Shown here: positions 1 to 32,858 of the stretch, piece by piece
Layout: the number at the start of each line of letters is the position of its first letter
Numbering within the stretch: position 1 is the first letter of the stretch
Source: Candidatus Cloacimonadota bacterium
GTDB lineage: Bacteria > Cloacimonadota > Cloacimonadia > G963667145
NCBI GenBank assembly: GCA_963667145.1
Contig: OY762943.1
Location: 1,236,251-1,300,250, forward strand
Length of the DNA: 64,000 nucleotides
Direction: 5' to 3'
Program-made: the position numbers and the translations under genes
The notes under the pieces: model-generated
Database searches by the model: none
What the model saw: only the letters and a program-made list of their open reading frames with translations
Told to the model about the DNA's origin: nothing

Positions 1-881
1 TGTGAAAAAACCGGTGCTATCAGAACGTAAAGAAACATATTCAAAATGGTAAGAGAAAGATTGCCAGTATGTGAAATTAGCAAAATGGCAACGGGAACGA
101 TGAAAAAAGAAAAGCTGTTGATTAGCACAATATATAACGACATCGGTGTTTGCCACAGGTTGGTGTATTTCATCACCATTTTTTTGTACCTGATGATGCT
201 GTTATAAAAATTTTTGAACGAATAGACTGTTTGTTGAAACACCTTTACTACGGGAATCCCACGAACATACTCCACTGCTTCGGTATTCATATCTTCCAAA
301 GAATCCATATACAGTTGCAAAAACTTTCGACCTTGAACACCCATCATGAAACTCATTATTCCCATTGAAATAACTATCGGCACAAGACAAGCGATTCCCA
401 GTCGCCAATCGAAAGCAAAAATTAGCACTCCTGCTGTTATGGGCATCACGATAGTTGCCGCAAAATCCGGCATTTGATGAGCCAGAAAGCTATGAGTAAT
501 GCTAGCATTGTCGTCAATAATTTTGCGAATGCGTCCAGTGGTATTGTTCTCAAAAAAACCGAGAGGCAGGCTTACCAATTTTGTCATAGCTCTTTTGCGG
601 ATATTTGTTTCCGCCCGAAATGCTGCCAAATGGGACAAAGACAAAGCCGCAAAATAAATTAACACGCTGGCTATGGCAAATCCTGTTGCCCACAGTGCAT
701 AGCTTTGTATCATCGAATGGGACGAGGCACTTTTGCCAATCAGAAATTCCCGAATGATGAACCACACCAAAACAAAGGGAACCATTCCCGACAAGGCACT
801 CAATCCAGAGAAAAACAGAGACAGTGGGAAAAGCAGTTCCCGTCCGCTCATATAGACTTTCAACCTCGATAAAGTTTTCAT
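1..881 (-). CDS. ABC exporter, transmembrane domain (partial). The N-terminus lies inside the window and the C-terminal part with the NBD runs off the left edge.
   Basis: The reverse strand reads from ATG at 881-879 as a coherent about 290-aa multi-TM sequence (MKTLSRLKVYMSGRELLFPLSLFFSGLSALSGMVPFVLVWFII...FENNTTGRIRKIIDDNASITHSFLAHQMPDF...) typical of the ABC_membrane/type I exporter fold. It is absent from the ORF track because no stop codon occurs inside the window. The small track ORFs 150..368, 202..408 and 550..765 are in other frames. Confidence 0.6.
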   Translation of the reverse strand, partial: MKTLSRLKVYMSGRELLFPLSLFFSGLSALSGMVPFVLVWFIIREFLIGKSASSHSMIQSYALWATGFAIASVLIYFAALSLSHLAAFRAETNIRKRAMTKLVSLPLGFFENNTTGRIRKIIDDNASITHSFLAHQMPDFAATIVMPITAGVLIFAFDWRLGIACLVPIVISMGIMSFMMGVQGRKFLQLYMDSLEDMNTEAVEYVRGIPVVKVFQQTVYSFKNFYNSIIRYKKMVMKYTNLWQTPMSLYIVLINSFSFFIVPVAILLISHTGNLSLTILNMFLYVLIAPVFS

Positions 882-1036
882 ATTAAAGCTCCTTTTTACA
901 TCTCTTTCTATAAGAAAGATGCTGTATTAAATCTTACTTTTAAAAACAAACATTGTTCTTTTGAGAGAAAGAATAAATCCCCAGTAATTTTGTCAACTTA
1001 AAAAAAAGAACAGTGTTCTGAAGAGAGGAAAAATTT

Positions 1037-1654
1037 TTACTCTGGAATCTCCATGACCTTTTTCCAACCGGCAACAGAGTAGTTCATATATTCGCTCACG
1101 AACCTCTCGAGTTCAGCACCTGACAAGTCGTGCATAACCAATTCGGCAACACTGCTGATGAACCACGAACTCATCGTGTGAATGAAAAATTCCGAAACAT
1201 TATTGTTAATAGAGGGGTATTTTTGCTTCGCCAATTCGATGAATCTTTTTTCGGTTTGAGTATGAATTTCGATACATTTCTCGCGATAATCTTCGAGTTT
1301 TGAACCAGCGGATTTAAAAAAAAGCAAGCGAAACTCTTCTTTAAATTTGTCCACAAGCTTGATGAACATTTTTATCTGTTCCCGCACATACTTTTCCGTA
1401 TCGTTAATGAAGAGGTCGAGGTCATCAAAGTTGTTGCTCCGCTCTATCATATTTCCCAAGGCAGTAAGCACATCAGCAACAATCTCGCGGAAAATCTCGT
1501 CCTTATTGCGAAAATAGTTGTAGATATTGCTCAAGTTCACTTCGCCCTTCTTGGCAATCGTCCGCATGGAAGTACCCTTGAAGCCATTTACGATAAATTC
1601 CTTGCGAGCAATCTCTAAAATTTTCCGCCTAACACTATTTTTTTGTACTTGCAT
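1037..1654 (-). CDS. TetR/AcrR family transcriptional regulator
   Basis: 205 aa. The N-terminal HTH (RRKILEIARKEFIVNGFKGTSMRTIAKKGEVNLSNIYNYFRNKDEIF) is a canonical TetR_N. It lies directly upstream of, and co-directional with, the ABC exporter gene. Confidence 0.85.
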   Translation of the reverse strand: MQVQKNSVRRKILEIARKEFIVNGFKGTSMRTIAKKGEVNLSNIYNYFRNKDEIFREIVADVLTALGNMIERSNNFDDLDLFINDTEKYVREQIKMFIKLVDKFKEEFRLLFFKSAGSKLEDYREKCIEIHTQTEKRFIELAKQKYPSINNNVSEFFIHTMSSWFISSVAELVMHDLSGAELERFVSEYMNYSVAGWKKVMEIPE

Positions 1655-1795
1655 TTTCTTTAATTCTCACCTCTTAGCTATGTTACAAAAAATATAGATT
1701 TCTCCAATTTGTCCATTTTTTTGTGAAATGCACCAAGAAGACAGATGGTAGATTGTGCTAATTTATTAGCTGAAACAGAAGAAATATCGAAATTA

Positions 1796-2830
1796 CTACT
1801 TCATTATATGCACATTTTCGGCTTTTATGTGAGCGAAAATTTTGCCATCTTTTTTTAATTCGTGATAGTCGATTACGTTTTTGTTCACGGTTAAAGAGAG
1901 TTTAAAATTTTCTTTCTGCAGTGTCAAATCGACCTCCGTGCCTTTCACATCAACCTTACTCAACGTACATTCCAAGGCATTATCCATGTTCTCTCTTTTG
2001 CGAGAAATAAAAACATTTTCTGGACGAATGGCAATGTTCACTTGGTTGCTGTTGGATTTTTCTGTAGAAAGAAATTTTGCACCATCACATTCGTATGAAT
2101 ACAGATTCCCAATTTTGCGGAAATATTTAGCTTCCAAAAAAATTGTGTTAAGAAAATTTGCGATGAATGGAGTTTTCGGCTTGCAAAAAAGATTTTCGCA
2201 CGTGTCGAATTGCAGGAGATTTCCGTCTTGGATGAAAGCGATTTTGTTCGCCAAATTTTTCGCATCAGCGATGTCGTGCGTGATGAGAATCACCGTGATG
2301 CCAAACTCAGTGGAAATGTCGTGCAACACCTTACGCATACATTTTCTGGTGAGCGTGTCCAAGCTGCTGAATGGCTCGTCCAAGAGCAGAAGTTTCGGTT
2401 TGGCAGCAAGAGCTCTGGCAAAAGCGACTCTCTGCTTTTCTCCACCTGATAGTTTCTTCGGCTTTCTATTGAGCAAGTGCGTAATGGTCAGCTTTTCGGC
2501 GATTTTGTGAATGACGCTTTTGTCTCTATTCTTCAGCCCGTAATCAATATTCTCGTACACGCTCATATGCTCGAAAAGAGCGTAATTTTGGAAAACCACA
2601 CCGATGTTACGGTCTTGTATTCGCTTTTTGGTTATCTCCTCTCCGTCTAACAAAATTGAACCGTTGTGTGGATTTCTGAACCCAATAATGAGGTCGAAAA
2701 TGGTGCTTTTCCCTGCTCCAGAGGGACCGATAATCGTCAAAAAATCTTTTCGCTCCAGTTGAAAATCGATGTTTCTCAGAGCGAAATTTTCGTACTTTAT
2801 AGTTAGATTGTTCACTGAAAGGAAACTCAA
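1796..2830 (-). CDS. modC: ABC importer ATP-binding protein with C-terminal TOBE domain (ModC/WtpC/CysA family; molybdate/tungstate-type)
   Basis: Walker A GPSGAGKST, signature LSGGEKQRVAFARAL, Walker B LLLLDEP, and a C-terminal transport-associated OB region of about 110 aa. It overlaps the upstream permease gene by 4 bp. Confidence 0.8.
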   Translation of the reverse strand: MSFLSVNNLTIKYENFALRNIDFQLERKDFLTIIGPSGAGKSTIFDLIIGFRNPHNGSILLDGEEITKKRIQDRNIGVVFQNYALFEHMSVYENIDYGLKNRDKSVIHKIAEKLTITHLLNRKPKKLSGGEKQRVAFARALAAKPKLLLLDEPFSSLDTLTRKCMRKVLHDISTEFGITVILITHDIADAKNLANKIAFIQDGNLLQFDTCENLFCKPKTPFIANFLNTIFLEAKYFRKIGNLYSYECDGAKFLSTEKSNSNQVNIAIRPENVFISRKRENMDNALECTLSKVDVKGTEVDLTLQKENFKLSLTVNKNVIDYHELKKDGKIFAHIKAENVHIMK

Positions 2831-3603
2831 AACTTCACCTCAATCTTTTCTATTAAATATATGGTAACAAAGGAGATAAGTATGAGCAAAACTCCAGCAC
2901 TAATCGCCATGTCGATGTTCCCATAGGACAGGTTTAAGTAGAGAGTAATGGGGAGCGTTTCCGTTTTCATGTAAGTTCCACCAGCGAGGATTAGTATCGC
3001 TCCAAAGCTTCCAATGGAACGGGTGAACGCCAAAACAGTTGCTGCTAAAAGTCCATTCTTTGCCAGTGGCAACGATATTTTTGTGAAAGTGGTGAAATAT
3101 CCGTGTCCCAAGCTGTACGAAACCAATTCCTGATGTTCGTCGATGTAGTCGAAAGTCGATTTGATAGTCTTTACGGAAAAAGGCAACGCCGTGAAAAATT
3201 GTGCTACGACTATTCCCAGCTTGGAGAAAATTACGGAAATGTTGAAAAAATTCAAAATAGCGACCACGCTATCTAATCCAAAAAAGAGCAACAGGCATAG
3301 CCCCAGTAACACTTGCGGAAACGCTATGGGTAAATCTATCACCGCTTTGACGATTTTGCTACCGAAAAATTCAAATCTCGACAAACTGTAGCCGATGGGA
3401 ATTGCGAAAAGCATAACCAAAAAAGTAGAAGTTAATCCCGTTAAAAACGAAAGTTTTATGGAGAAAAGTATCTGTGGGTCAGTGAAATTTTTCACCATAA
3501 CAGCCGGATTTATCAAGAAGATGAACGAAAAAATCATCAACACGAAAGTTATGGTGAAAAAGTACGAAATTGTTAAGAATAAAGTTTTAAGCGGATTTCT
3601 CAT
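2827..3603 (-). CDS. modB: ABC importer permease (binding-protein-dependent inner-membrane component, ModB-like)
   Basis: 258 aa with six predicted TM segments. The conserved EAA-like loop region (TRSIGSFGAILILAGG) is typical of ModB/CysT permeases. Its start shares coordinate 3603 with the stop of the substrate-binding protein gene, suggesting translational coupling. Confidence 0.8.
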   Translation of the reverse strand: MRNPLKTLFLTISYFFTITFVLMIFSFIFLINPAVMVKNFTDPQILFSIKLSFLTGLTSTFLVMLFAIPIGYSLSRFEFFGSKIVKAVIDLPIAFPQVLLGLCLLLFFGLDSVVAILNFFNISVIFSKLGIVVAQFFTALPFSVKTIKSTFDYIDEHQELVSYSLGHGYFTTFTKISLPLAKNGLLAATVLAFTRSIGSFGAILILAGGTYMKTETLPITLYLNLSYGNIDMAISAGVLLILISFVTIYLIEKIEVKF

Positions 3604-4352
3604 TAATTTGCCATTTTAAAATTCCATTTTTCCCAAACATCTTTTCTCTCTTTCAGATATTTATTAAATTTCTCCGCCAGTTCTTTGTTTTTCGATTTTT
3701 TGGTAATCGCGGACGGCACAGTTTTAATCACGTTCTTCTCAATCGGAATAGTCTTGATTTTGCCTTGGCTCTCAGCCCAAGAAGCCATATCTTCCCAAAT
3801 AATAGTAGCGTCAACAGTTTTTTGGGTAATGTAGATTAGCAGTTGATTTACAGCTGCAGTCTCCACAGAAACATTTTTCCTCACATCGTCATAAATCTCG
3901 TTTTTTTGGAAAATCATCTTGGATAGCTTGCCAATCGCTGGACCTTTCTCTGCTCCGAGGGCGAGTTTGACGCCTTTTCTGGCAAAATCTTTGATGCTCT
4001 TAATTTTGGCAGGATTATCAGCAGGTATGGCTATCACGGGAATATGAAGCACAATTTTTTGGACGCTTGGCTCAACAATCCAGCCTTTTTTTATCATATC
4101 GTTGAGAGCCTTTTCGCTCCCTGGCACGTATACATCGCAGGGCTGCCCGGCAACGTAGCGACCGTAAAGATTGCCTGAGCCGTCATAGTAAACATCAATT
4201 TTCGCGTCGAACTTCTTCTCAAAATCTTGGATTATCTCGTTCATCGGTTTGATGAGCCCAGCTCCCGAGAAGACGGTCAGATTACCTTTTCCCCATAACA
4301 TTGACAAAGAAAGTGCAAATAGCAGAAACATTTTTTTCATTTTCATCTCCAT
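3603..4352 (-). CDS. modA: Periplasmic molybdate/tungstate-binding protein (ModA/WtpA family). The start is chosen at MEMKMKKM; the track ORF extends to 4418.
   Basis: Signal peptide MKMKKMFLLFALSLSMLWG. The motif LTVFSGAGLIKPMNEIIQDFEKKFDAKIDVYYDGSGNL...DVYVPGSEKALNDMIKKG parallels E. coli ModA (ITVFAAASL...ADLFISAD). It is the first gene of a modABC-like operon on the minus strand. Confidence 0.75.
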   Translation of the reverse strand: MEMKMKKMFLLFALSLSMLWGKGNLTVFSGAGLIKPMNEIIQDFEKKFDAKIDVYYDGSGNLYGRYVAGQPCDVYVPGSEKALNDMIKKGWIVEPSVQKIVLHIPVIAIPADNPAKIKSIKDFARKGVKLALGAEKGPAIGKLSKMIFQKNEIYDDVRKNVSVETAAVNQLLIYITQKTVDATIIWEDMASWAESQGKIKTIPIEKNVIKTVPSAITKKSKNKELAEKFNKYLKERKDVWEKWNFKMAN

Positions 4353-4412
4353 GTGTTTTCTTTCGTTATTTTTTTGGAAACATATCGCTGTCAAGAACTT
4401 TCTTTTCCAACT

Positions 4413-4745
4413 AAACAACTCTTTAACTTATTCGTCTTGCTTTTGTGCTCGGGGTGGCTCAACTCTGAACACCAAAGAGGAGCAGTCTTGAATATCCATC
4501 TATTAAATGTAAAGCCAACTTACTTCAATAGCTAAACTTATAGAGTACACGGGAGCGACCACACTTTATTCTCTGCTGGCGACTCGCAACGACTGCTACT
4601 ATGTGGGCAGAGCGGACTTTTCTGGTTCGTCTTTTCGTCCGTCCGAAAAGATGAACACCTCTCTGTAAGAGGATATCCCTACCCTTGCTCTTACTGGATT
4701 CCCGTTTTCACGGGAATGAGGGTGTTTGGAGATTTTGGCTTCCCA
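4413..4745. repeat. Copy 1 of a roughly 330-bp non-coding element that is tandemly duplicated (see copy 2)
   Basis: About 95% identical to 4996..5325 (caactctttaacttattcgtcttgcttttgtgctcgg...gggaatgaggg). It contains the hairpin attcccgttttcacgggaat. The intervening 4746..4995 carries partial third copies of sub-motifs (aagcacaa, gggaatgagg, cacctcatgcctgcggaggcaggtatccatt) and an A/T hairpin cttctttttttcgccgtaaaaaaagaag. Confidence 0.8.
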
Positions 4746-4995
4746 CTTTTCAAGCACAATAGTGCTAAGCAAAAGATTAAAGTTGTGCTTGATAGACAAC
4801 GGGAATGAGGGGATAAGAAGCGTGTTGATGAGGGATGCTTGTAGGTGTGAGGAGTACAAGAATGAGAACCTCTTGGGGCTTCTTGCTTCTCTACACCTCA
4901 TGCCTGCGGAGGCAGGTATCCATTGCAATGTGCCTTCTTTTTTTCGCCGTAAAAAAAGAAGCAAAAAACCTCTAAATACAAAATCAAAAAGCTAT

Positions 4996-5430
4996 CAAGC
5001 ACAACTCTTTAACTTATTCGTCTTGCTTTTGTGCTCGGGATGGCTCAACTCTGAACACCAAAGAGGAGCAGTCTTAAATATTCATCTATTAAATGTAAAG
5101 CCAACTTACTTCAATAGCTAAACTTATAGAGTACACGGGAGCGACCACACTTTATTCTCTGCTGGCGACTCGCAACGACTACTACTATGTGGGGAGAGCA
5201 GACTTTTCTGGTTCGTCTTTTCGTCCGTCCGAAAAGATGAACACCTCTCTGTAAGAGGATATCCCTACCCTTGCCCTTACTGGATTCCCGCGTCCGCGGG
5301 AATGAGGGATGCTTGGGGCTTCTTGCTTCTCTACACCTCATGCCTGCGGAAGCAGGTATCCATTCTTGAATAGACCGCGAGAATGAGTGGTGCTTAGACT
5401 CTGGCGACTTCCCATAAAGGTCGCTATTCT
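4996..5430. repeat. Copy 2 of the tandemly duplicated non-coding element. It abuts the stop codon of the GLUG giant gene.
   Basis: Direct alignment with 4413..4745. It contains the perfect hairpin ttcccgcg-tc-cgcgggaa near 5296..5316. Confidence 0.8.
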
Positions 5431-8400
5431 CTATTCATACCAGCTATGTGCTGTACGGTTTAAATATACTTTATCAGGATTAGTGACATTATCAGGAATA
5501 TTCCAAGCAGAATAGCCCTTTATTCCACTATGCACTAGCGTCTCATAAAAAGTACTTCGAGTAGGGTAAGATTTATTATAAGTTGAAGGTGTAATACTAT
5601 AACTTTTGGATCCATCTAAATAATCACCTCCATCCGCAATTTCAAAAGAAGAACAGGTACTTGAAAGATGATTTGCTATATAACTCATATAATGAAGCTG
5701 AGGAACGTAAATACCACCCATAGAGACATAATATTGATATACAGAACTAATGTTCAACAATTCGTCCGGCTTGTCCGGCAAACATGCTAATTTCAAATAG
5801 ATAGCAATATTTGTAAGATTGGAAGAGGGGATATACCCAAAAACACCTGCTACAGTACCACCGTCTGAATACATGTTATAGCCACTATCTAGGTATACGG
5901 CCAATCTTTCCCCAGAAACATTATATACCAATCCTCCTATAGCTCCAACACAATCGGTATAAACGGGATTTCCATAGGGAACTTGATTGAGAGAAATTCT
6001 ATCAGAGTAAATATAAGCGTTTTTAACATAAATATCTTCAAAGTAAATGGGATCCCTACCATTAGGCAACGAAGATCTAGTCCGAGAACTAATCAAACTC
6101 CCAAAATGGCGAGGATACGGATCACCATGGGACACATAAGTTCTATGAAAAAAGTCCACCTCCAGCTTGCTTATACTGAGGCTAACATCTGGTGCATGGA
6201 TAATGCCTTCGTATTCAGAAATAGTATTGCTAATATTTTTGTATCCGTCTATGCTGTGTCCATTTCCGTAAAAATTGTTTGGAGAGGTCATGGAAGTGCT
6301 AACATTGGCAAATCCAAAGAGGCTATTTTTTGCGGTGCCAGCTGTAGAGCCATTTAAGTCAACAGACCAAAAGGTAGCACTTTCACTTCCTTCTTCCAAC
6401 AAAATATCTGTATAGAGTTTAATGTTAGTATTGTTCACATAAACTCCAGGACCATCAGTATTGGCGAAGAGGATTTGCGGAGTGAAGACAGAAATTTCTG
6501 ATGTAAAATAATTTCCTGGCGTATAGCCGTCAATCAAGTACTTTTCGTATTCAAATCCACGAGCTTGACCCATGTTGTCAATATCGTCACTACGGCTTTG
6601 TAAAAAAGTAAGACAGGGGTAATATTTGCTATTCGCTCTGCTGATATCCCAGTCGAAAGCATTAAACCCAATGTCAGTCCAAAAACTAGCATTATTATAG
6701 AGTTTGGGAGTAACTGTTTTGGGTGGTTCACTGCCTGCATAGAGATTCTCACCATTTTTTAAGCCAGTGCTAACGTTTCCTGTGCCTTTGTTATAATCAC
6801 TATTGTTCCAGTTAATCCCGAAGCGTTTATGATAATACTTGATATAAGTTTCCACCCAGCCATAGTTATTACTCAGAGATCCACTAGCGTTAGTGCCAAC
6901 TATCCTGCCAAGTCTGCTATTATCTCCATTTTTGGCATATTTTGCTTTAATATCAAAATAATTTATCATCGCTACACAGTTTTTTATATCGCCTGCACCG
7001 TTATAACCTACTATCCCTCCGATATATCCCGAAGAAGTACTGGTGATGTCACTTTTTATGGTAGTGCCAGAGACCAAGCAACAGCTAACCTCCCCTCCTG
7101 AATATCCAACGATACCTCCGAAGTTGGAACCACCTGACATATAGAGAGTTGCACCGTCCACATGAGAATTGGTGATTTTGCAACCCGCAGAACCAACTAT
7201 GCCTCCTGTTTGGGAACCACCTGTGATAGAAGTGTTTTTAATTACAGCACATGAATGGATATATTCCCCTCCAAACTCTCCAACGATGCCTCCTGTAGCT
7301 CCCTCCAAGGTGTTGGTGGTTTTGATAGTACAATTGGATACAAAACTACTACTGATTTTACCGCTCCCATATCCAACTAATCCACCTAAATACTTGTACT
7401 TACCAGAAAAGTTTTTTCCCACCACAGAACAACTTTCCATAGTTCCTGTGAAATATCCAGCAATGCCACCAAAATAAGTTCCTTCTATCATAGACAAAGT
7501 GTAGTTTGCTCCAACATGCACATTGGAAATTGTGGCATTTGTTATATACCCAGCGATGCTACCAATGCCATTATCACTAGTCCCTGTAACAGTAACGGAA
7601 ATTTTATCACTATTATCATTAATATTAATATTAATATTTTTTACAGAGTTTCCCTTAAAATATCCCACCAATCCTCCGCCATAGTTCTTGGCACTAACTG
7701 TAATGTTAGATTTTAGAGTGATATTGTCGAGGTAACTGTTACTCCCCTCGCAATATCCAACTGCTCCGCCTCCAGAACCATTTGCGGAAGAAATGACTAC
7801 GTTAGTTATGGTGTCACGGAGGCCAGAGCCTGAACCCTTTCCATATATTCCTCCTGCGTCACTGTCAATTCCCGATGATTGAATAAAGAGACTGTCCACG
7901 GAACAGTCGGAAGCAAGACCTCTAAAATATCCTGCCAAGCCTCCGACCTCGTTTTTCCCTATAATAGTCGAAGAGTCTACTTTGCAATTGGTAATATTTC
8001 CATCTATAAGTCCTGTTAAGCCTCCTGCTTTCTCGTCTGCTTCTACTCTAATCTTGGAAACCTTAGCATTGGAAATGTTGCCATAATACACCCAGGGACA
8101 TAAGCCACCAGCATCGCCTTTTACGGAGGTTATAATGGCTCTTGTTACGGAGGCGTCATCTATTCCTCCATTTGAATCTCCATATCCGTATAAACCACCT
8201 GCATAATTGTTGTTGGCTGTGACTATTAAACTATCTGCGTAGCATTTGTAAATAGTGCCAGTAAACCATCCTGCTAAACCTCCGACGTTGTTATATCCCG
8301 TGATAGTGGCAGAATCTATGGTACAATTGGAGATATTTACGCCTGTGGCTGCAGTTAAACCTCCTGCTCGCTCTTTTGCATCTACTCTAACTTTGGCAAC

Positions 8401-10446
8401 TTTAACCTTGTAAATGCTGCCACTCTCCACATTGGAAGATAAGCCACCAGCATCGCCTCTTACGGAGGTTATTATGGCTCTTGTTACGGAGGCATCGTCT
8501 ATTCCTCCTCTTTCTCCTGCTCTCCCATATAAACCACCTGCATTACTGCCGTTGGCTGTGACTATTAAACTATCTGCGTAGCATTTGTAAATAGTCCCAG
8601 TAAACCAACCTGCTAAACCTCCGACGTTGTCATTTCCCGTGATAGTGGCAGAATCTATGGTACAATTGGAAATCTTTGCGCCTGTGACTGCAGTTAAACC
8701 TCCTGCTTGATCTTTTGCATCTACTCTAACTTTGGCAACTTTAACCTTGTAAATGCTGTCACTCATCACATTGGAAGATAAGCCACCTGCATTACCATTT
8801 GTGGAGGTTATAATGGCTCTTGTTACAGAGGCGTCGTCAATTGCTCCATTTGCATTTCCATATCCGTATAAACCTCCCGCATATGTAGTTAAAGATGTGC
8901 TTGAAGCTGTTACTCTCAGGCTGTCTGCATAGCATTTGTAAATAGTGCCAGTAAACCATCCTGCCAAACCTCCAACATTGGTAATTCCGGTAATGGTGGA
9001 AGAATCTATGGTACAATTGGAGATCTTTCCGCCTGTTGATGCCGACAGACCTCCTGCTTGACCATTGCTTTTAGAAACAACTCTCACCTTGGATACGTTA
9101 GTATAGGAGATGTTGCCAGAACCTCCTTCTGCCGACAATCCTCCCACATTGCCATTGGAAGTGATAGAAGCATTTTTTACAGAACATTTTGTAATAGGCA
9201 CTGATGCAGGTGATTCTATAAATGCGTACAGTCCCCCTGCGTAGTTGGTTGATGCAGTGATGTTGGCTCTTGTCACAGAACATGTGTCAACTGTCCCCGA
9301 TATCTTCCCATATCCAAATAAACCACCTGCATATATGTCCGAGGCTTTAACACTTACACTATCCACAGTACATTTGAAGACAGAGCCAGCCAAATGTCCA
9401 ATCAACCCTCCAACACATTGAGTTCCTTCGATAGTGGAAGAATCTATAGTGGAATTGGAGACAGAACCAGCCAAATCTCCAACTAAACCTCCAACATAGC
9501 GATAACCTGAGACGGTGGTAGAATCTACTTTACAATTGGTAATATTAGCCGACAAATAGGAAGTTATTCCTCCTGCTTGTCCATTGCAAGTAATTGCCAC
9601 CTTAGAGATTGTAATATCAGAAATACTTTTATCTCCTGCTTTCCCCGCCAAGCCACCTACATCTCCTGCACCAGTAAGAGCCAAATTGTACACTTTGCAG
9701 TTTTCGATAGTCCCATAAGCATATCCAACTATGCCACCTATATATTGATTGCCCGAGATAAGCACCTTTTCGGCAGAAGTGCCGATTACAGTACAGTTTC
9801 TAATTTTGCCTGTGGCGGACAAAGAACCAACCAACACCCCTACATAGTCGCTAGAGGAGGTAGAAGTTCCTATTAAGCTGTTGATTTTCACCGTAAGGTC
9901 ATGCACACTGTCAGAAACCGTTGCAAAAAGTCCAGTCTTGGAGCAGTCTGTCCTGAGGGTGAAATTTTCGATAGTGTGTCCATTTCCGTTGAACCTGACA
10001 ACGTTGAATAGTGGATAAATCGTGTCTCCACCGAAGTTTAGAGGAGAAGATAAATCCACGCTAATTTTATACCCATAGAGACCTATAAGTTTTTTATAAT
10101 CATCAGTGGTAGAGATGATTACAGTTGTGTCATAGAGTGTAGAATAATTTTCTTGCTCAATTCGGTGCACAGGTAGTCCCGATTTTTTAAGCCACGGGTT
10201 ACCTACAGAATCTAAAACCCCTGTTAAAGGATTCCAGCCAAGATTCTGCCAAAAATTTACGTTCTGCAAATCGGTGTTAGAAACAGATTTGCCCTCTTTG
10301 TCATCAATAGCCGCTAATACAGCCTCGCCAGTGGGCAGAGAACCGCTCTGCAAAATCGAGTTTACACCTAAATCTGTCGCTAAAACACCTGAAAAGCAAG
10401 CAACCGACAGAATTGTTAACAAAAATTTTCTGAAAGAAACAATCAT
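5431..10446 (-). CDS. Giant (~1672 aa) secreted/surface protein with tandem GLUG-type repeats
   Basis: The start is chosen at ATG 10446 (MIVSFRKFLLTILSVACFSGVLA, preceded by ggagaaaaaaATG). There are dozens of about 27-aa units of the type VGGLVGxxxGxIxNCxVDSxxIxG (GLUG motif, PF07581-like). Internal DNA is highly repetitive; for example, units of about 340-430 bp near 8130-8560 and 8470-8900 are near-identical. Confidence 0.75.
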   Translation of the reverse strand: MIVSFRKFLLTILSVACFSGVLATDLGVNSILQSGSLPTGEAVLAAIDDKEGKSVSNTDLQNVNFWQNLGWNPLTGVLDSVGNPWLKKSGLPVHRIEQENYSTLYDTTVIISTTDDYKKLIGLYGYKISVDLSSPLNFGGDTIYPLFNVVRFNGNGHTIENFTLRTDCSKTGLFATVSDSVHDLTVKINSLIGTSTSSSDYVGVLVGSLSATGKIRNCTVIGTSAEKVLISGNQYIGGIVGYAYGTIENCKVYNLALTGAGDVGGLAGKAGDKSISDITISKVAITCNGQAGGITSYLSANITNCKVDSTTVSGYRYVGGLVGDLAGSVSNSTIDSSTIEGTQCVGGLIGHLAGSVFKCTVDSVSVKASDIYAGGLFGYGKISGTVDTCSVTRANITASTNYAGGLYAFIESPASVPITKCSVKNASITSNGNVGGLSAEGGSGNISYTNVSKVRVVSKSNGQAGGLSASTGGKISNCTIDSSTITGITNVGGLAGWFTGTIYKCYADSLRVTASSTSLTTYAGGLYGYGNANGAIDDASVTRAIITSTNGNAGGLSSNVMSDSIYKVKVAKVRVDAKDQAGGLTAVTGAKISNCTIDSATITGNDNVGGLAGWFTGTIYKCYADSLIVTANGSNAGGLYGRAGERGGIDDASVTRAIITSVRGDAGGLSSNVESGSIYKVKVAKVRVDAKERAGGLTAATGVNISNCTIDSATITGYNNVGGLAGWFTGTIYKCYADSLIVTANNNYAGGLYGYGDSNGGIDDASVTRAIITSVKGDAGGLCPWVYYGNISNAKVSKIRVEADEKAGGLTGLIDGNITNCKVDSSTIIGKNEVGGLAGYFRGLASDCSVDSLFIQSSGIDSDAGGIYGKGSGSGLRDTITNVVISSANGSGGGAVGYCEGSNSYLDNITLKSNITVSAKNYGGGLVGYFKGNSVKNINININDNSDKISVTVTGTSDNGIGSIAGYITNATISNVHVGANYTLSMIEGTYFGGIAGYFTGTMESCSVVGKNFSGKYKYLGGLVGYGSGKISSSFVSNCTIKTTNTLEGATGGIVGEFGGEYIHSCAVIKNTSITGGSQTGGIVGSAGCKITNSHVDGATLYMSGGSNFGGIVGYSGGEVSCCLVSGTTIKSDITSTSSGYIGGIVGYNGAGDIKNCVAMINYFDIKAKYAKNGDNSRLGRIVGTNASGSLSNNYGWVETYIKYYHKRFGINWNNSDYNKGTGNVSTGLKNGENLYAGSEPPKTVTPKLYNNASFWTDIGFNAFDWDISRANSKYYPCLTFLQSRSDDIDNMGQARGFEYEKYLIDGYTPGNYFTSEISVFTPQILFANTDGPGVYVNNTNIKLYTDILLEEGSESATFWSVDLNGSTAGTAKNSLFGFANVSTSMTSPNNFYGNGHSIDGYKNISNTISEYEGIIHAPDVSLSISKLEVDFFHRTYVSHGDPYPRHFGSLISSRTRSSLPNGRDPIYFEDIYVKNAYIYSDRISLNQVPYGNPVYTDCVGAIGGLVYNVSGERLAVYLDSGYNMYSDGGTVAGVFGYIPSSNLTNIAIYLKLACLPDKPDELLNISSVYQYYVSMGGIYVPQLHYMSYIANHLSSTCSSFEIADGGDYLDGSKSYSITPSTYNKSYPTRSTFYETLVHSGIKGYSAWNIPDNVTNPDKVYLNRTAHSWYE

Positions 10447-10808
10447 TTTTTTCTCCAATAAATACTCCATGTCAAATAAAATAAAAGTAACAAAAAAAGT
10501 CAAATAAAAAGGTGTAATCGTAAATATGTGGGTAATGTTTAGTCATCTTTATGGACAATGTTTCTACTATAAATAAAGTGACCAAAGAAATAATTTGAGA
10601 GTGCTCCAATCCTTCCTGCTGTAAATCCCCGTTTACACGGAGAAGATGCTTTGTTTATTAATTTTTCTAATTCTCATGTCTGTAAAAAATAGGTATCTAT
10701 TATTAACTGATTTCTTGAACAACAATTCCACAGAAAGCCATAATGAGAATTGCATATAATCACCATAATAATTTGACAGCTCCACCACCAACTCGCGAAA
10801 ATAACTCT

Positions 10809-11474
10809 ATGAATTTCACAAACAACAACTCTAAAAACGGCAAAATCATCTCCGCCTCTCTCTACGAATATTTGAGAAGCATCGCTCCGCACGAGAACGA
10901 ATTCCTCCAAAATTTACGCAACGAAACTGTGGAACGAGTACGTCAATCGCACTTTTTGATTAGCGTAGAGCAAGCCCAATTTTTGCAATTCCTCATAAGA
11001 TTAACCAACTCCAAAAACTGCTTGGACATCGGGACTTTCACTGGATACAGTGCTCTTGTAGCTGCTCTCTCCATTCCAGACGATGGCAAGGTCATCACCT
11101 TAGACTACAAAGAAGATTTTGAGCAAATCAGGCAAAAGCACTGGAAAAGAGCGAGGGTAGCACACAAAATTCAGCAGATAATCGGACAAGCCGAAGAGAA
11201 ATTGAAGAGTCTGCAAGACCAAAAATTCGATTTCATTTTTATAGATGCAGACAAAGTCAACTACTCCAAATACCTAGAACTGTGTTTGCCGATTTTGAGC
11301 GACAACGGAGTAATCGTCGTGGACAATCTATTGCTTTCGGGGAGAATATTGGAAGACGACAATCGCACTGCTCCCAAGCTCCGCCAATTCAACAATTCCC
11401 TCAAATTGTCGGAAGAGATAGACTACACAATTCTATCTATAGCCGACGGACTTGCACTTATACAAAAGAAATAG
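10809..11474 (+). CDS. Class I SAM-dependent O-methyltransferase (family 3, caffeoyl-CoA OMT-like)
   Basis: The region LDIGTFTGYSALVAALSIPDDGKVITLDY...FDFIFIDADKVNYSKYLELCLPILSDNGVIVVDNLL matches the family 3 OMT (PF01596) SAM-binding and catalytic regions. The likely start is MNFTNN at 10809; the track ORF begins at 10743. Confidence 0.8.
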   Translation: MNFTNNNSKNGKIISASLYEYLRSIAPHENEFLQNLRNETVERVRQSHFLISVEQAQFLQFLIRLTNSKNCLDIGTFTGYSALVAALSIPDDGKVITLDYKEDFEQIRQKHWKRARVAHKIQQIIGQAEEKLKSLQDQKFDFIFIDADKVNYSKYLELCLPILSDNGVIVVDNLLLSGRILEDDNRTAPKLRQFNNSLKLSEEIDYTILSIADGLALIQKK

Positions 11475-11565
11475 ATTCTTAGGGCAATTTTGGGGGTCTT
11501 AATCTTTTGTCTTGACATTTTTTTGAATTGTCTTTTCGATTGCGAGAAAAACTGAGGACAAAGTT

Positions 11566-13086
11566 ATGGGGAAAAGCTCTGTTGCCATAGAGATGCGAAA
11601 TGCGACCAAAATCTTTGGTTCGTTTGTAGCAAATGACAAAATCAATCTGAGGGTCATGGATGGCGAAATTCACGCCATTCTCGGAGAAAACGGAGCGGGC
11701 AAATCGACCTTGATGAACATGCTCTACGGTCTCTACAGCCTTACCAGCGGTTGTATAGTAGTTGAAGGGGTAGAAAAAAAATTCAACTCTCCATCTGATG
11801 CGATTGCTTGCGGTATCGGAATGGTTCACCAACATTTTATGCTTGTCAAGCCTTTCACGGTGACTCAAAACATCATTCTCGGCTCGGAAGTTACCAAAAA
11901 GTACGGCGTTTTGGATTATCAAAAAGCTAAAGAAAAAATCGTTGAACTCTCTCAGAAATACAAATTGAACATCGACCCCGATGCCAAAATCAATCAAATT
12001 TCTGTGGGGATGCAACAGCGAGTTGAAATCTTGAAAGCTCTCTACCGCCAAGCCAACACACTAATCTTGGACGAGCCGACTGCCGTGCTAACTCCTCAGG
12101 AAATCACGGAACTTGGCAAGATTATGAAGTCACTCACTTCCGAGGGGAAAAGCATACTCTTTATCTCTCACAAGTTAAAGGAAATTAAGGATTTAGCCGA
12201 CAAATGCACCGTCATTCGCAAAGGGAAAGTAATCGACACCATAGATGTTGCTGACGCTTCCATCCAAGAGATGGCAACGATGATGGTCGGGCGTCCAGTA
12301 ATCCTGAATGTGGACAAGGGCGAGAAGCCGAAAGAGGAAATTCCTCTGCTGGAGATTAAAGACCTTTGTGTCAAAAACGAAAAAGACCTTTTGGCGGTTG
12401 ACCATCTAAATCTAACTGCATACAAGGGCGAAATTTTGGGAATTGCTGGCATCGACGGAAACGGACAGAAGGAGTTCGTGCAGGCTCTCACAGGGCTAAC
12501 GCCTACAGAAAGCGGACACGTTCTTGTCAACAACAAGGAAATCACAGGTTGCTCTCCGAAAGAAGTGAACATCCACGGAATTGGGCATATTCCCAGTGAC
12601 AGACAGAAGCACGGGCTGGTCTTGGAATATTCGGTTCAAGACAACACGATTTTGCAAACCTACAACTCCGCACTGTATTCCAAAAAGTGCATTCTGCAAA
12701 AAGATGCGATTAAAGAGCATGCCAAAAAATTGATTGAGAACTTCGACATCCGACCCACGGATGAGAACAAGCTCGCTCGCGACCTTTCGGGCGGTAATCA
12801 GCAAAAAGTGATTTTGGCGAGAGAAATTGATTCGTCTCCCGATTTGTTGATTGCCTGTCAACCCACCAGAGGCTTGGATGTGGGAGCGATAGAGTACATT
12901 CAGAAATCTCTGATAGAACACAAAAAAGCGGGCAAAACCATTCTTTTGGTCTCGCTGGAGCTGGACGAAGTGATGAACCTCTCCGACCGCATCGCCGTTA
13001 TTCATTCGGGCAAAATTGTCGGAATAGTTGACGGAGACAAATGCGACAGAAATCAGATTGGCTTGATGATGTCAGGAGGGTGTTAG
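11566..13086 (+). CDS. ABC transporter ATP-binding protein with two NBDs (nucleoside/simple-sugar family, paired with a BMP lipoprotein)
   Basis: 506 aa. Walker A GENGAGKST in the first NBD and a second NBD (GIDGNGQKEF...LSGGNQQKV). The dual-ATPase architecture is typical of CUT2/BMP-type importers. Confidence 0.9.
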   Translation: MGKSSVAIEMRNATKIFGSFVANDKINLRVMDGEIHAILGENGAGKSTLMNMLYGLYSLTSGCIVVEGVEKKFNSPSDAIACGIGMVHQHFMLVKPFTVTQNIILGSEVTKKYGVLDYQKAKEKIVELSQKYKLNIDPDAKINQISVGMQQRVEILKALYRQANTLILDEPTAVLTPQEITELGKIMKSLTSEGKSILFISHKLKEIKDLADKCTVIRKGKVIDTIDVADASIQEMATMMVGRPVILNVDKGEKPKEEIPLLEIKDLCVKNEKDLLAVDHLNLTAYKGEILGIAGIDGNGQKEFVQALTGLTPTESGHVLVNNKEITGCSPKEVNIHGIGHIPSDRQKHGLVLEYSVQDNTILQTYNSALYSKKCILQKDAIKEHAKKLIENFDIRPTDENKLARDLSGGNQQKVILAREIDSSPDLLIACQPTRGLDVGAIEYIQKSLIEHKKAGKTILLVSLELDEVMNLSDRIAVIHSGKIVGIVDGDKCDRNQIGLMMSGGC

Positions 13087-13089
13087 ATT

Positions 13090-14223
13090 ATGGAATTTCT
13101 AAGAAAAATCAAACAACTCATTATCAACCATCCAAAACTTTTCCCTCTCATCTCCATCATCATCGGTCTCATCAGCGGTGGCATCGTCTTGCTGGTTGCG
13201 GGATACAATCCGTTTCAGGCTTACGGCGTCATTCTTTGGGGAATTTTCGGCAGAGTTAGTTACCTCAGCTACACCATTGTAAAGGCGACACCTCTCATTC
13301 TCACAGGATTGTCCATCACGTTCGCCTTCCGCACTGGGCTTTTCAACATCGGAGCAGAGGGACAATTCATCATGGGGACTATCGTGGCAGCTATCTTCGG
13401 TTCAATGTTCTCCATGCCAATCTACCTGCATGTCCCTTTTATCATCTTGATGACCATCGCCATCACGGGTTTGTTCGGTGCTGTAATCGGCTTTCTGAAA
13501 GCACGTTTCGGAGTTCACGAGGTTATCACTTCCATCATGATGAACTGGATAGCTCTCTATCTGCGGAACTACTTCGTCAGAGTTTCGTGGTTAGCCAAGC
13601 CCAATAGCGAGCAGACTAATTTCATTGCGGATTCTGCTGTGATAACTTTTTTCGATAATTTCAAGATGAGTAAAGAGGGCATCAAATGGCTCGGTCAGCA
13701 TCCTTTTTTCAAAGAACTGCTCCGTGCTCCCACAAATGCGGGGATACTCTTTGCCATATTGGCGGTCATTATCGTCTATTTTATTCTAAACAAAACCACT
13801 TTGGGCTATCGATTGAAAGCTGTCGGCTTCAACCCCGATGCTGCCAAATACGGCGGAATAAACGTCAACAATAGCTTCGTCACTTCGATGTTCATTGCTG
13901 GTGCTCTTTCAGGCTTGGCAGGTGCTTTGCAGGTGATGGCTGTTTCCCACAATATCAGCATTTTATCCGTTATGGAAGGTTACGGATTTGACGGTATCGC
14001 TGTTGCTCTGATAGGCGGAAGCACAGCTTTTGGCAACCTCTGGGCAGGTATCTTCTTCGGTGCACTCAAGTATGGCGGAACCAAGTTGCAGCCCATTATG
14101 GGAGCTCCTTTTGAGATTATCAACATTATGATAGGCATAATCGTTTTCTTCGTGGCTATGCCCAAAATTATCCCTTATCTTGTTTCAATTTTTGACAAAA
14201 AAGGAGAGAAAAATGCTAAGTAA
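13090..14223 (+). CDS. ABC transporter permease (BMP/nucleoside uptake system)
   Basis: 377 aa polytopic membrane protein of the BPD_transp_2-like family, immediately downstream of the ATPase gene. Confidence 0.85.
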   Translation: MEFLRKIKQLIINHPKLFPLISIIIGLISGGIVLLVAGYNPFQAYGVILWGIFGRVSYLSYTIVKATPLILTGLSITFAFRTGLFNIGAEGQFIMGTIVAAIFGSMFSMPIYLHVPFIILMTIAITGLFGAVIGFLKARFGVHEVITSIMMNWIALYLRNYFVRVSWLAKPNSEQTNFIADSAVITFFDNFKMSKEGIKWLGQHPFFKELLRAPTNAGILFAILAVIIVYFILNKTTLGYRLKAVGFNPDAAKYGGINVNNSFVTSMFIAGALSGLAGALQVMAVSHNISILSVMEGYGFDGIAVALIGGSTAFGNLWAGIFFGALKYGGTKLQPIMGAPFEIINIMIGIIVFFVAMPKIIPYLVSIFDKKGEKNAK

Positions 14224-17869: not shown

Positions 17870-17952
17870 TTGGCAAAATCCTAAGGCACAAAAATTTACT
17901 TGCAAGAAAAATCTCAATCAATAGAAAGGAGCAGATTAAGGAATTGAAAAAA

Positions 17953-18753
17953 ATGACAACAAACTCTCCGAAACACCATTTGCCTTTGGTTAGCATCGTA
18001 ACAATCGTCTTCAACGGCATCGACATATTGGAAAAGACCATTCTGAGCGTTATCAACCAGACTTATCCTAACATTGAGTACATCGTTGTCGATGGCGGTT
18101 CTACTGATGGAACTGTTGACATTATCAAAAAGCACAAAGACAAAATCAGTACTTGGATAAGCGAAAAAGACCGTGGCATTTACTATGCGATGAACAAAGG
18201 AACTGCTCTCGCCACAGGTGAATGGCTTGGCTTTATGAACGCAGGAGATTCGTATTTTAGCGAAAGCACATTGGAAAAAATTTTCTTCCAACCAGTTGAC
18301 GCCGATGTTATTTACGGGCTAACCAAACGAATTTTCCCTGATTTCGAATACATCAAACAAACCAAACCAATCGAAACACTATGGCGAGGAATGAGATTTT
18401 GCCACCAAAGTATGTTCGTTAAAACCAGCCTGCAAAAAGAGAACAAATTCTCCCTAAGCTCGCTAAATGCTGATTACGAATTTATTTATAAAATGTATCT
18501 GCAAAACAAAACGTTCCTCTATCTCCCGATAGTTATTGCCAATTTTGCCGAAGGAGGTGCTTCCACAAAGAGCCTTCTACAAAGCAATTACACCAATTAC
18601 AAAATTTCCAACAAACTAAAAAAGCTCTCTATCCGTCAAAAGTTTTTCTATCTCTTTGCTATACTCTCCGCAGTATTTATGGATTTTGGAAGAAAGCTAA
18701 ATTCCAAGAGTTTAGAAAAATATTATAAACTAAAACTGAAAATGAAAAAATAG
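17953..18753 (+). CDS. Family 2 glycosyltransferase
   Basis: The motif VSIVTIVFNGIDILEKTILSVINQTYPNIEYIVVDGGSTDGT...YAMNKG...GEWLGFMNAGD matches the GT2 (Glycos_transf_2) DxD region. ATG 17953 is preferred over TTG 17944. Confidence 0.8.
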   Translation: MTTNSPKHHLPLVSIVTIVFNGIDILEKTILSVINQTYPNIEYIVVDGGSTDGTVDIIKKHKDKISTWISEKDRGIYYAMNKGTALATGEWLGFMNAGDSYFSESTLEKIFFQPVDADVIYGLTKRIFPDFEYIKQTKPIETLWRGMRFCHQSMFVKTSLQKENKFSLSSLNADYEFIYKMYLQNKTFLYLPIVIANFAEGGASTKSLLQSNYTNYKISNKLKKLSIRQKFFYLFAILSAVFMDFGRKLNSKSLEKYYKLKLKMKK

Positions 18754-18813
18754 TTGCTAAAAATGAGTTGACAAAAGATAGGTTCAATAACAAATGAACC
18801 AACTAAACTTTTA

Positions 18814-19506
18814 ATGAAAACACAAACCATTTTGCGTGCCGGATTAGTTACCATTTCATCAATCTTTTGCCTGTTTTCTCCTTCTTCTTTACGGGCAAGA
18901 AATTTTCATTACTTAGAGCCGGCACGCTCTTTTCTGCTCAATCCCGCTCTGCAAGATTCCTGCTTCTCCACGGGAGCCAAATTCTACAACGGCGAAAGCG
19001 ACGTCATGAATTACAACGTTTCTCTCTCCACTAAGCACAAAAAATTTTCTTACTTCGCCGATGGCGACTATCTGTATTTCAAATATTACAAAATGCTCAA
19101 TTTCTCAGGAGGACTAAGCTATAAACACAACATCTATTCCGTAGGTGGCTACTTATCCTACCAACAAGATTCCGAAGAAAATATCGATGAAGATTGCTCA
19201 ATTTCCACAGGGATTAACTTTTTGGGGATGAGTCATTATCTTATTTGCACTTCTATCTCAGAGAAGCAATGGGCTGTCGAAACTCGCAAAGATAAATTTT
19301 TGGTGTTCAGGCTTGAGGAAGAGAACTTTCTTGTCGCCACAGAAAATCTATTAAATAAATTCAGTTCCTTGAAAATTTCACTCCGTAAAAACGAACTTGC
19401 TTCGGGAATAAAGTTCACTATCAAAAAATGGTTTATACAATTTTCTACAATTTGGCATAGACATACCCAAGCGGATTATTTGGTGAATGTGGGAAGGGAA
19501 TTTTAG
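18814..19506 (+). CDS. Hypothetical secreted protein (230 aa)
   Basis: An ORF with an N-terminal hydrophobic signal-like region. No recognisable family. Confidence 0.4.
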   Translation: MKTQTILRAGLVTISSIFCLFSPSSLRARNFHYLEPARSFLLNPALQDSCFSTGAKFYNGESDVMNYNVSLSTKHKKFSYFADGDYLYFKYYKMLNFSGGLSYKHNIYSVGGYLSYQQDSEENIDEDCSISTGINFLGMSHYLICTSISEKQWAVETRKDKFLVFRLEEENFLVATENLLNKFSSLKISLRKNELASGIKFTIKKWFIQFSTIWHRHTQADYLVNVGREF

Positions 19507-19563: not shown

Positions 19564-20361
19564 TTGCGAGTAAAAATTACTTTTAGTTCTAATAGAAATT
19601 TTTTTGTCCCTTTCAACTACAAATACGAGATTTCTGCCCTCGTCTACAAGCTAATTGCCACAGCTTCCCAAGATTATGCCACCTTTTTACATGAAAAAGG
19701 TTTTGAATTTGATTTCTTAAGAAAATTCAAACTTTTCACTTTCTCCGATCTAAATTTTATTCCATTTAAAATTGATAAGCTAAAAGGTGGATTTGGCGAA
19801 ATTGAAAAAGTTGAGTTAATTTTTTCCACATTGATTCCCAAAAGTTTTGAAAATTTTATTTTAGGGATTTTTAAAAATCAGAATATTTCACTTGGTTTTG
19901 GTGCAGGCAGAAAAATAGACTTCTTTGCAGAAAATGTGGAAACTTTACCAGAGATAACTTTTGAAAATGAACTTAAATTCAAGTGTCTTTCGCCGATAGT
20001 AGTAACTACTAAAAAAGAAATAAACGGCGATTTGAAATTGCATTTTGTGGAATATAATACTCCCGAAGAAAAGAAACAATTTTCCGAAAACATTCATAAA
20101 AATCTTCTCTATAAATATGCAGCTTTTCATGGTAAAGAATACGGAAATAAAGATTATAATTTTGAATTTCATTTTGATGAGGAATATATCAAAAAACGCA
20201 AAGGGAAAATTTATAAGCTCCTGCGTTACAAAAACACCAATATCAAAGGGATTTATGTTTCGGGTGTTGTAAAAGCTCCCAAAGAGTTGTTAGAGATTTT
20301 GTATTATGCAGGGGTTGGAGAGAAGAATAGCGGGGGATTTGGATGTGTGGAGGAAATTTGA
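19564..20361 (+). CDS. cas6: Cas6 (CRISPR repeat endoribonuclease), type I-B
   Basis: TTG start 8 nt after aaggag. The C-terminal glycine-rich loop GVGEKNSGGFGCV is typical of Cas6. It is the first gene of the cas operon. Confidence 0.75.
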   Translation: MRVKITFSSNRNFFVPFNYKYEISALVYKLIATASQDYATFLHEKGFEFDFLRKFKLFTFSDLNFIPFKIDKLKGGFGEIEKVELIFSTLIPKSFENFILGIFKNQNISLGFGAGRKIDFFAENVETLPEITFENELKFKCLSPIVVTTKKEINGDLKLHFVEYNTPEEKKQFSENIHKNLLYKYAAFHGKEYGNKDYNFEFHFDEEYIKKRKGKIYKLLRYKNTNIKGIYVSGVVKAPKELLEILYYAGVGEKNSGGFGCVEEI

Positions 20362-20370
20362 GAGGTAAGA

Positions 20371-23865
<3,495 letters not shown>

Positions 23866-23874
23866 GTATTATCA

Positions 23875-26322: not shown

Positions 26323-26350
26323 ATAAATAAAAGCTAATTTAGGGGAACTT

Positions 26351-26848
26351 ATGGTCAATAACCCAAAAATTACAGCTACCCAAATCAATTACTATTTTGT
26401 GTGTCATCGCGAACTCTGGCTTTTTTCTCATCAGGTGAATATGGAGCAAAATTCAGAATTGGTAGCTTTGGGTAAGCTTTTGCACGAAAATTCTTATAAG
26501 CGGGAAGACAAGGAAGTGCAAATCGGTCCGATTAAAATCGATTTTATAGGTAAGGACAGAGTTATTCACGAGGTAAAGAAAACTCCCTCCATCGAAGAAG
26601 CACACACTTGGCAACTCAAGTATTATTTGTGGTATCTGAAACAATTGGGAGTGGAAAATTTGAAAGGCGAGATAGATTATCCCAAATTGAAAAAACGGAC
26701 GGAAATTACCTTGAGCACAGAAGATGAAGAGCAAATCGGGAAAATATTGCAAGAAATAGAGCAAATTGTAAATTCCCCCGAAATTCCGCAAACCATCAAC
26801 AAATCTCGATGCAAAAAATGTAGCTATTACGAACTTTGTTATATTTAA
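26351..26848 (+). CDS. cas4: Cas4 (RecB-like nuclease with Fe-S cysteines)
   Basis: 165 aa. The N-terminal Cys is in YYFVCHRELW. The C-terminal cluster CKKCSYYELC supplies three more Cys. It includes the RecB-nuclease core. Confidence 0.85.
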   Translation: MVNNPKITATQINYYFVCHRELWLFSHQVNMEQNSELVALGKLLHENSYKREDKEVQIGPIKIDFIGKDRVIHEVKKTPSIEEAHTWQLKYYLWYLKQLGVENLKGEIDYPKLKKRTEITLSTEDEEQIGKILQEIEQIVNSPEIPQTINKSRCKKCSYYELCYI

Positions 26849-26857
26849 GGAGATAAG

Positions 26858-27847: not shown

Positions 27848-27850
27848 TTT

Positions 27851-28114
27851 ATGTATGTGATAGCTGTTTATGATATTGGCGAAAAAAGAGTTGGCAAAAT
27901 TTTAAAGATTTTTAGAAAATATTTGACGCGAATTCAAAATTCCGTTTTCGAAGGAGAGATTACCAAATCGAAATTTGAAAAGTTGAAGATAGAAGTGTTA
28001 GAAGTGATTGACAAGGGTTATGATAATGTTTTGTACTACAAATTGACTTCCGATCATTATTTGCGTAAAGAACAGTTGGGAGTGCAATTAGACCAGATGA
28101 GCGTCTTCTTGTAA
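27851..28114 (+). CDS. cas2: Cas2
   Basis: 87 aa. MYVIAVYDIGEKRVGKILKIFRKYLTRIQNSVFEGEI is the canonical Cas2 N-terminus. Confidence 0.85.
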   Translation: MYVIAVYDIGEKRVGKILKIFRKYLTRIQNSVFEGEITKSKFEKLKIEVLEVIDKGYDNVLYYKLTSDHYLRKEQLGVQLDQMSVFL

Positions 28115-32857: not shown

Positions 32858-32858
32858 A

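Follow-up and report, generated by a model that had tools for sequence, protein, structure and literature searches.

In a 64-kb window (64,000 nt) of a Candidatus Cloacimonadota genome (assembly GCA_963667145.1, contig OY762943.1, positions 1,236,251 to 1,300,250), the spacer between a modA-type solute-binding gene (3603–4346, minus strand, PF13531) and the stop codon of a giant GLUG gene (5431–10503, minus strand, 1690 aa, PF07581) is 1084 nt long and holds a non-coding unit twice, in direct orientation. We tentatively read this spacer, with a probability of about 0.4, as a cluster of a non-coding, hairpin-rich, locally amplified and non-autonomous repeat element at a rearrangement hot spot, similar to miniature inverted-repeat transposable elements (MITEs) or to REPINs, which are built from repetitive extragenic palindromic (REP) sequences. 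This reading is placed first because full, interrupted, inverted and fragmentary copies of mixed age occur together, the hairpin modules are found in both orientations, the element is present in one strain and absent in others, and the cluster lies at a synteny breakpoint.

The two copies are 96% identical according to a repeat search (4415–4714 versus 5001–5300) and 94.8% identical over 329 nt by blastn (4415–4742 versus 5001–5329; E = 2e-147), in accord with the original prediction, made from the bare sequence, of a ~95% duplicate between the start of modA and the stop of the GLUG gene (between 4346 and 5431). Their 310-nt bodies differ at 13 positions, with no indel. The predicted copy length of ~330 bp has to be extended: a 65-nt tail is repeated at an offset different from that of the body (4860–4924 versus 5300–5364, 91% identity), and it follows that copy B is contiguous (~4990–5373) and copy A is split. 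The full-length unit is thus ~385 bp, and copy A is the unit of copy B interrupted by an insert of ~137 nt (4723–4859) between body and tail (table 1). The G+C content of the spacer is 45%, compared with 40–46% for coding DNA in this region and ~32% for a true intergenic stretch nearby (10351–10800).

Table 1. Organization of the repeat cluster and its margins (positions in the window).
Feature	Position	Strand	Basis or remark
modA promoter and short leader	4347..4412	-	-35 box TTGACA at 4391-4396, GGAG ribosome-binding site, ATG at 4346/4340; context, outside the repeat
Copy A body, 310 nt, with the H1 module (4696-4721) at its end	4413..4722	+	95.8% identical to 4999-5308, no indel
Diverged 3' part of copy A, with an inverted copy (4753-4796) of the hairpin at the 5' end of the unit	4723..4797	+	Repeat search, blastn, local alignment
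Three degenerate reiterations of the H1 3' half/tail junction motif: CGGGAATGAGGGG, ATGAGGGATGCTTG, GAATGAGAACCTCTTGG	4798..4859	+	Repeat families D3 and D4; motif count; sequence reading
Copy A tail with the H2 module (4896-4921), an inverted paralogue of H1	4860..4924	+	91% identical to 5300-5364; minus-strand pattern match with 0 mismatches
A+T-rich linker with an A/T-stem hairpin (4934-4961)	4925..4989	.	-8.8 kcal/mol, z -2.5; self-complementary
Copy B, contiguous full unit: 5' hairpin, body, H1 (5282-5307), 28-nt spacer, H2 (5336-5361)	4990..5373	+	Self-comparison, folding, pattern match
Extra partial copy of the H1 3' half/tail junction, CCGCGAGAATGAGTGGTGCTTAG	5374..5400	+	5375-5395 versus 5294-5314, 86% identity; family D3
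Hairpin adjoining the GLUG stop codon	5402..5426	+	Terminator-like on the plus strand only (T-rich tail); -10.7 kcal/mol, z -3.6

Comparison of the spacer with itself shows a mosaic, not a simple tandem duplication. Copy B, bounded by CTATCAAG and CTTGAATAG, opens with a hairpin (CTATCAAGCACAAC...TTGTGCT) and closes with ...CCATTCTTGAATAG. A 26-nt hairpin module, GGATNCCNGCNNCCGCNGGNATGAGG, is present four times, two per strand, against 0.00 expected, and has no match in the rest of the window; one degenerate pattern matches H1 on the plus strand and H2 on the minus strand. H1, the short spacer and H2 of copy B (5278–5366, 89 nt) fold together into a single long hairpin of −43.2 kcal/mol (z −5.4), and the H1 module of copy A folds at −12.3 kcal/mol. 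The hairpins and reiterated submotifs that had been noticed by eye are real by calculation: folding gave −14.9 kcal/mol for 5280–5310 and −8.8 kcal/mol for 4932–4966, and GGAATGAGGG occurs three times against 0.28 expected, in addition to the second tail copy at 4860–4924. A junction motif, (CCGCG)GGAATGAGGGATGCTTGG, has left six partial copies (~4710, 4799, 4826, 4858, 5296 and 5376).

The 5' end of the unit recurs in inverted orientation after the body of copy A, as a 44-nt fragment of ~75% identity (blastn 4992–5035 versus 4795–4753, E = 0.001). Its local alignment score of 34 was reached by none of 500 shuffled sequences (17.5 ± 2.1), and it includes a perfect 15-nt inverted repeat in which 4781–4795 pairs with 4992–5006. 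The segment around it (4723–4797) has a hairpin of its own (−13.7 kcal/mol). Identity is graded across the cluster, from 95% between copies A and B through 80–90% among the junction fragments to 75% for the inverted fragment. Both partners of a stem pair have changed in H1, where a T-A pair of copy A corresponds to C-G of copy B, and the stems of H1 and H2 likewise differ by C-G against T-A.

Two relatives found through ModA homologues, L001 (ERZ21862645 ctg38472c) and L003 (ERZ21831251), lack the element both at this locus and in all of their DNA that was searched, making it a presence/absence polymorphism among genomes that are otherwise close in the flank. L003 is 96% identical to window positions 1–4394, where synteny ends and an unrelated gene follows within a wholly different neighborhood. 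L001 is 80% identical to positions 1–4404, where synteny ends (~4404), and again to 10917–14000. The interval from modA to the O-methyltransferase gene holds the repeat cluster and the GLUG gene in the window and four other genes in L001, namely a GT2 glycosyltransferase gene and genes of 230, 197 and 59 aa; the GLUG gene is at the syntenic position in neither relative. Judged from these three sequences, the cluster and the GLUG gene form an island, specific to this strain, in the interval from modA to the O-methyltransferase gene, and this junction, rearranged again and again, is a hot spot of rearrangement. Since the GT2 and 230-aa genes have been relocated and the neighborhoods differ in L001 and L003, the element stands at the border of an island that varies between strains.

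Some further details of the junction were recorded. In L001 the element is replaced (8990–9763) by two minus-strand genes, of 197 and 59 aa, with no Pfam match. The GT2 and 230-aa genes lie beside modA in L001 (7305–8902) and beside cas6 in the window (17944–19506). At the modA/methyltransferase junction L001 has no GLUG gene, and it carries an extra OMP_b-brl gene.

If the spacer is a repeat-element cluster, it would have gathered copies and fragments that differ in age and orientation, through insertion of family members and/or through unequal recombination and replication slippage between hairpin-bearing repeats, and these repeats probably had a part in rearranging the junction. The presence of modules in both orientations fits recognition at the level of DNA better than at the level of RNA. 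Long hairpins lie 70–150 nt downstream of the GLUG stop codon; they could stabilize the 3' end of the GLUG mRNA and could also shield the modA promoter against read-through. If the cluster has a function today, the analogy with REP elements makes it likely that this function is incidental.

Several observations weigh against a mobile origin. Copy B has a terminal inverted repeat of no more than ~9 nt, with one indel (CTATCAAG...CTTGAATAG). Inspection identified no target-site duplication and no flanking direct repeat at either copy, and the relatives offer no clean empty site because both differ on the far side as well. A Pfam scan of the ORFs (open reading frames) in the window found no Y1/RAYT (REP-associated tyrosine transposase) or other matching transposase, and the sole insertion sequence (IS) of the window, inside a CRISPR array, has unrelated ends (TAAAAGTATCCACCC), so that an origin of the element from this IS is rejected. 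The lineage DNA available for a copy search comprised the window and 62 kb from relatives (126 kb in all, from a lineage in which the source genome measures 1.54 Mb), and neither the remaining 63 kb of the window nor the 62 kb from the two relatives, which includes two GLUG paralogues, gave another copy or fragment with blastn and nhmmer. With two copies only, a local duplication is indistinguishable from a mobile family. A Poisson estimate from the DNA searched excludes a family of more than ~70 copies per genome and is compatible with a modest one (up to ~70 copies would be missed with a probability above 5%).

Wider pattern searches gave no real match in GTDB representative genomes, JGI/NCBI metagenome contigs or IMG/VR. 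In the GTDB representative genomes, pattern ACACGGGAGCGACCACACTT had no match and pattern CTATCAAGCACAACN{0,2}TTTAA had 13, approximately the chance estimate from the database size, none of which extends past the pattern. The metagenome contigs yielded one 22-nt chance match to AGAGGATATCCCTACCCTTGC, and six patterns run against IMG/VR produced a single chance match in a high-G+C coding region. The hairpin-module pattern had no match in the viral collection, and blastn against phage and plasmid collections returned chance matches of 31–48 nt only. Within the collections scanned, the element is an orphan without detectable relatives. An association with GLUG genes was rejected, since two GLUG paralogues of the related strain L005 are not followed by it.

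Membership of the MITEs or the REPINs is not established. The structural features are wholly or partly there: the unit is small (~385 bp, under 600 bp) and non-coding, with neither a conserved ORF nor a match to proteins or Pfam, and two inverted short palindromes with a spacer (H1 at 5282–5307 on the plus strand, H2 at 5336–5361 on the minus strand) give one long hairpin. Dispersed copies and target duplications did not turn up in the DNA searched, nor a cognate transposase in the window, and all four module matches in the window fall inside the element, compared with the tens to hundreds of copies per genome that a REPIN family would have. Of the three explanations originally offered, a MITE-like repeat nevertheless agrees best with the anatomy, through the inverted fragments, the presence/absence pattern and the breakpoints; what 126 kb did not yield is the dispersed copies with target-site duplications.

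The two relatives also locate the modA promoter. A block of ~55 nt (window 4347–4396), which begins with the −35 box TTGACA, includes a GGAG ribosome-binding site and ends at the ATG, is near-invariant in the window, L003 and L001, and the DNA upstream of it is unrelated among the three. Because this conserved block lies between the element and modA, the element is upstream of the promoter and not in the transcript leader; the distance from promoter to start codon leaves a leader of a few tens of nucleotides, which is too short for a riboswitch. The promoter region proper, TTGACAGCGATATGTTTCCAAAAAAATAACG (window 4360–4396; L003 6125–6160; L001 9950–9985), is almost invariant across ~20% genome divergence, which may reflect an operator. 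A TetR-family gene (1037–1654) follows the transporter genes.

These results bear directly on the proposal that the repeat is a molybdenum or tungsten cofactor (Moco/Tuco) riboswitch, or another structured leader of modABC, read from the minus strand. It was suggested by the adjoining modA-type gene and the structured sequence, but the −35 box, leader and start of modA are all downstream of the element in three genomes, and the orthologous modA genes of L001 and L003 lack the element with modABC-tetR kept. An Infernal scan of the whole window with Rfam 15 had no match at the gathering score, and a scan of both strands of 4200–5600 at E ≤ 10 gave eight noise matches, with no riboswitch and in particular no Moco_RNA_motif (RF01055). 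As far as sequence can show, we consider the proposal ruled out, with next to no residual probability. ARAGORN found no transfer RNA or transfer-messenger RNA, and a minus-strand GAAAAGUCCGC resembling the conserved CR-I motif of RNase P was dismissed because no RNase P model matches. A CRISPR-repeat-like RNA of the neighboring type I system was also rejected, the best ungapped match in the element (17/30) being equal to the 99.9th percentile of the background. Another of the original candidates, a pair of small or medium RNA genes (~370 nt each) that arose by tandem duplication within the island, is possible, though we think it rather unlikely; their transcripts would either converge with that of the GLUG gene (plus strand) or form its 3' untranslated region (minus strand). 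The unit is indeed more structured than most of the genome. The copy B unit has fold z scores of −3.3 (plus) and −3.7 (minus), below the background of −0.52 ± 1.20 (48 segments), the G+C content is above that usual in spacers, the 310-nt bodies align without indels, a perfect 13-bp hairpin is present (z −4.9), and beyond copy B, on the plus strand only, comes a hairpin that resembles a terminator and has a T-rich tail. RNAalifold on the two sequences found substitutions compatible with pairing on either strand and one compensatory pair, in H1. Against this, 3–4 of the 48 background segments fold about equally well, no Rfam family matches, no sigma-70-like promoter was found in 4200–5600, and the pair is absent from a strain with a 96% identical flank. 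When the structure predicted from one copy was tested on the other, the kept and broken pairs simply followed the G-to-A direction of change and neither strand was favored; moreover, an RNA-binding partner would not read hairpin modules alike in both orientations. A more specific version, in which the ~370-nt unit is the recently duplicated gene for a new structured RNA without an Rfam relative, on a strain-specific island of an under-sampled lineage with 1.5-Mb genomes, and its GAAUGAGGGAUGCUUGG motifs and paired hairpin modules would titrate a protein, is doubtful. A CsrB-like decoy finds little favor: copy B contains ~9 GGA (hand count) against ~5 expected from a rough composition estimate, a slight enrichment at a low count.

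An inert by-product of rearrangement, that is, unique DNA that arrived with the GLUG island, was duplicated and partly inverted or deleted in place, and was never mobile or functional, is unlikely. It would explain why the cluster is exactly at the synteny breakpoints in two relatives, why the GT2 and 230-aa genes moved relative to L001, and why no other copy was found in any collection scanned and no homologue among 5.8 billion proteins (six-frame). However, the inverted 5' fragment is ~25% diverged and copies A and B only 5%, which implies either a long history in place, contradicted by the relatives, or input from family members that had already diverged. The hairpin stems were kept through double substitutions, and 1 kb of junk would be unusual for a 1.5-Mb genome. 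An inverton, in which the 15-nt inverted repeats (4781–4795 and 4992–5006) flank a flippable 196-bp segment that switches transcription toward modA or against the GLUG gene, is very improbable. The repeats are perfect, 196 nt apart and extend to 44 nt at 75%, and the right arm holds a −35-like TTGATA on the minus strand, but the window encodes neither an invertase nor a recombinase, the segment does not precede the start of the GLUG gene, modA is served by a conserved promoter of its own, and the inverted repeat is explained more simply as a piece of the repeat unit in reverse orientation. A duplicated and decayed protein-coding gene is equally improbable. The G+C is coding-like and there are several stop-free stretches of 80–130 codons; the plus-strand ORFs 4353–4535 and 4726–5121 nonetheless both end in ...LNIHLLNVKPTYFNS, as artifacts of the duplication, just as had been suggested at the outset, and the longest minus-strand ORFs (ATG/TTG) of the two copies read the common body in different frames, so that no ORF is conserved between them. 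The concatenated six-frame translation of copy B had no match at E ≤ 0.001 among the same 5.8 billion proteins, a Pfam scan of the ORFs of the element found nothing, and tblastn with window and L001 ORFs recovered only the conserved piece of the modA leader. With no protein or Pfam match and no frame common to both copies, a protein-coding nature is rejected.

The main value of these results is a correction, in that a structured repeat beside modA is not a molybdenum cofactor riboswitch; comparison with relatives locates the promoter and is enough to show this without an experiment. Should the element prove multi-copy in the complete genome, it would constitute a new family of miniature DNA elements, either mobile or repetitive, from a poorly sampled lineage with small genomes, and would also mark a recombination hot spot beside variable giant surface-protein genes. 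Should a discrete transcript be found, it would be an orphan RNA of ~370 nt. Either outcome leaves current understanding standing.

Other features of the window are described here for context. The GLUG gene has internal tandem repeats of its own, 339 nt × 3.1 copies at 8015–9060 (82% matches) and 81 nt × 2.2 at 9361–9539, and its protein has paralogues of 30–41% identity (P0124–P0127), which occur both within this genome and in a related strain. A type I CRISPR-Cas locus (19564–36096) encodes Cas6, a 583-aa protein, Cas7, a 271-aa protein, Cas3, Cas4 and Cas1. Its array (28311–36096) consists of ~100 repeats of ATTTAAATTAGACTACTGTAGAATTGAAAC and is split by a 1273-nt IS with a transposase ORF at 31624–32712 (HTH and rve_3 domains) and ends TAAAAGTATCCACCC. 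An isolated, exact 30/30 copy of the CRISPR repeat is found at 36697–36726, 601 nt past the last repeat of the array and just downstream of the stop codon of a second giant gene (37064–43756, minus strand, 2230 aa), which encodes many CarboxypepD_reg, SdrD_B and SpaA domains as well as four DUF285 repeats.

Compared with known systems, the element has in common with the Moco/Tuco riboswitch (RF01055, Moco_RNA_motif) only that it adjoins a modA-type transporter gene; it has no covariance-model match, is upstream of the promoter, and is not conserved with the operon. Tandemly duplicated regulatory small RNAs include the multi-copy Rsm/Csr-type and Qrr-type RNAs. As in these, two near-identical structured units stand in tandem in a spacer, and the reiterated motif GAGGGAUGC resembles the CsrA-binding core ARGGAUG. 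Unlike them, the element has no promoter that could be found and no conservation, and its motifs are outside the hairpin loops in the predicted folds.

In REPINs, or REP-containing bacterial interspersed mosaic elements (REP-BIMEs), two inverted REP palindromes form a long hairpin and are mobilized by RAYT transposases (PMC3337134, PMC3116915). The 3' part of the unit (5278–5366) is built alike, with two inverted 26-nt imperfect palindromes and a 28-nt spacer giving one long hairpin, and it is likewise extragenic, downstream of a stop codon, and has stems kept by compensatory change. REPINs number tens to hundreds per genome alongside a RAYT gene, whereas the module here is confined to a single spacer within 64 kb, in a window without RAYT, and is embedded in a much larger unit (~385 bp). 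REP sequences have a conserved GTAG-type head, which the module does not.

Bacterial MITEs and modular intergenic repeats include Correia/NEMIS, BOX, RUP and the Bacillus cereus bcr repeats. The intact copy differs from MITEs in having no clear terminal inverted repeats longer than ~9 nt and no target-site duplication, and so far no dispersed copies have been detected and no parent IS identified. The size range (100–600 bp), non-coding nature, strong folding and strain-variable presence are those of this group, as is the occurrence of full, truncated and inverted copies in one spacer, with variably reiterated modules as in BOX.

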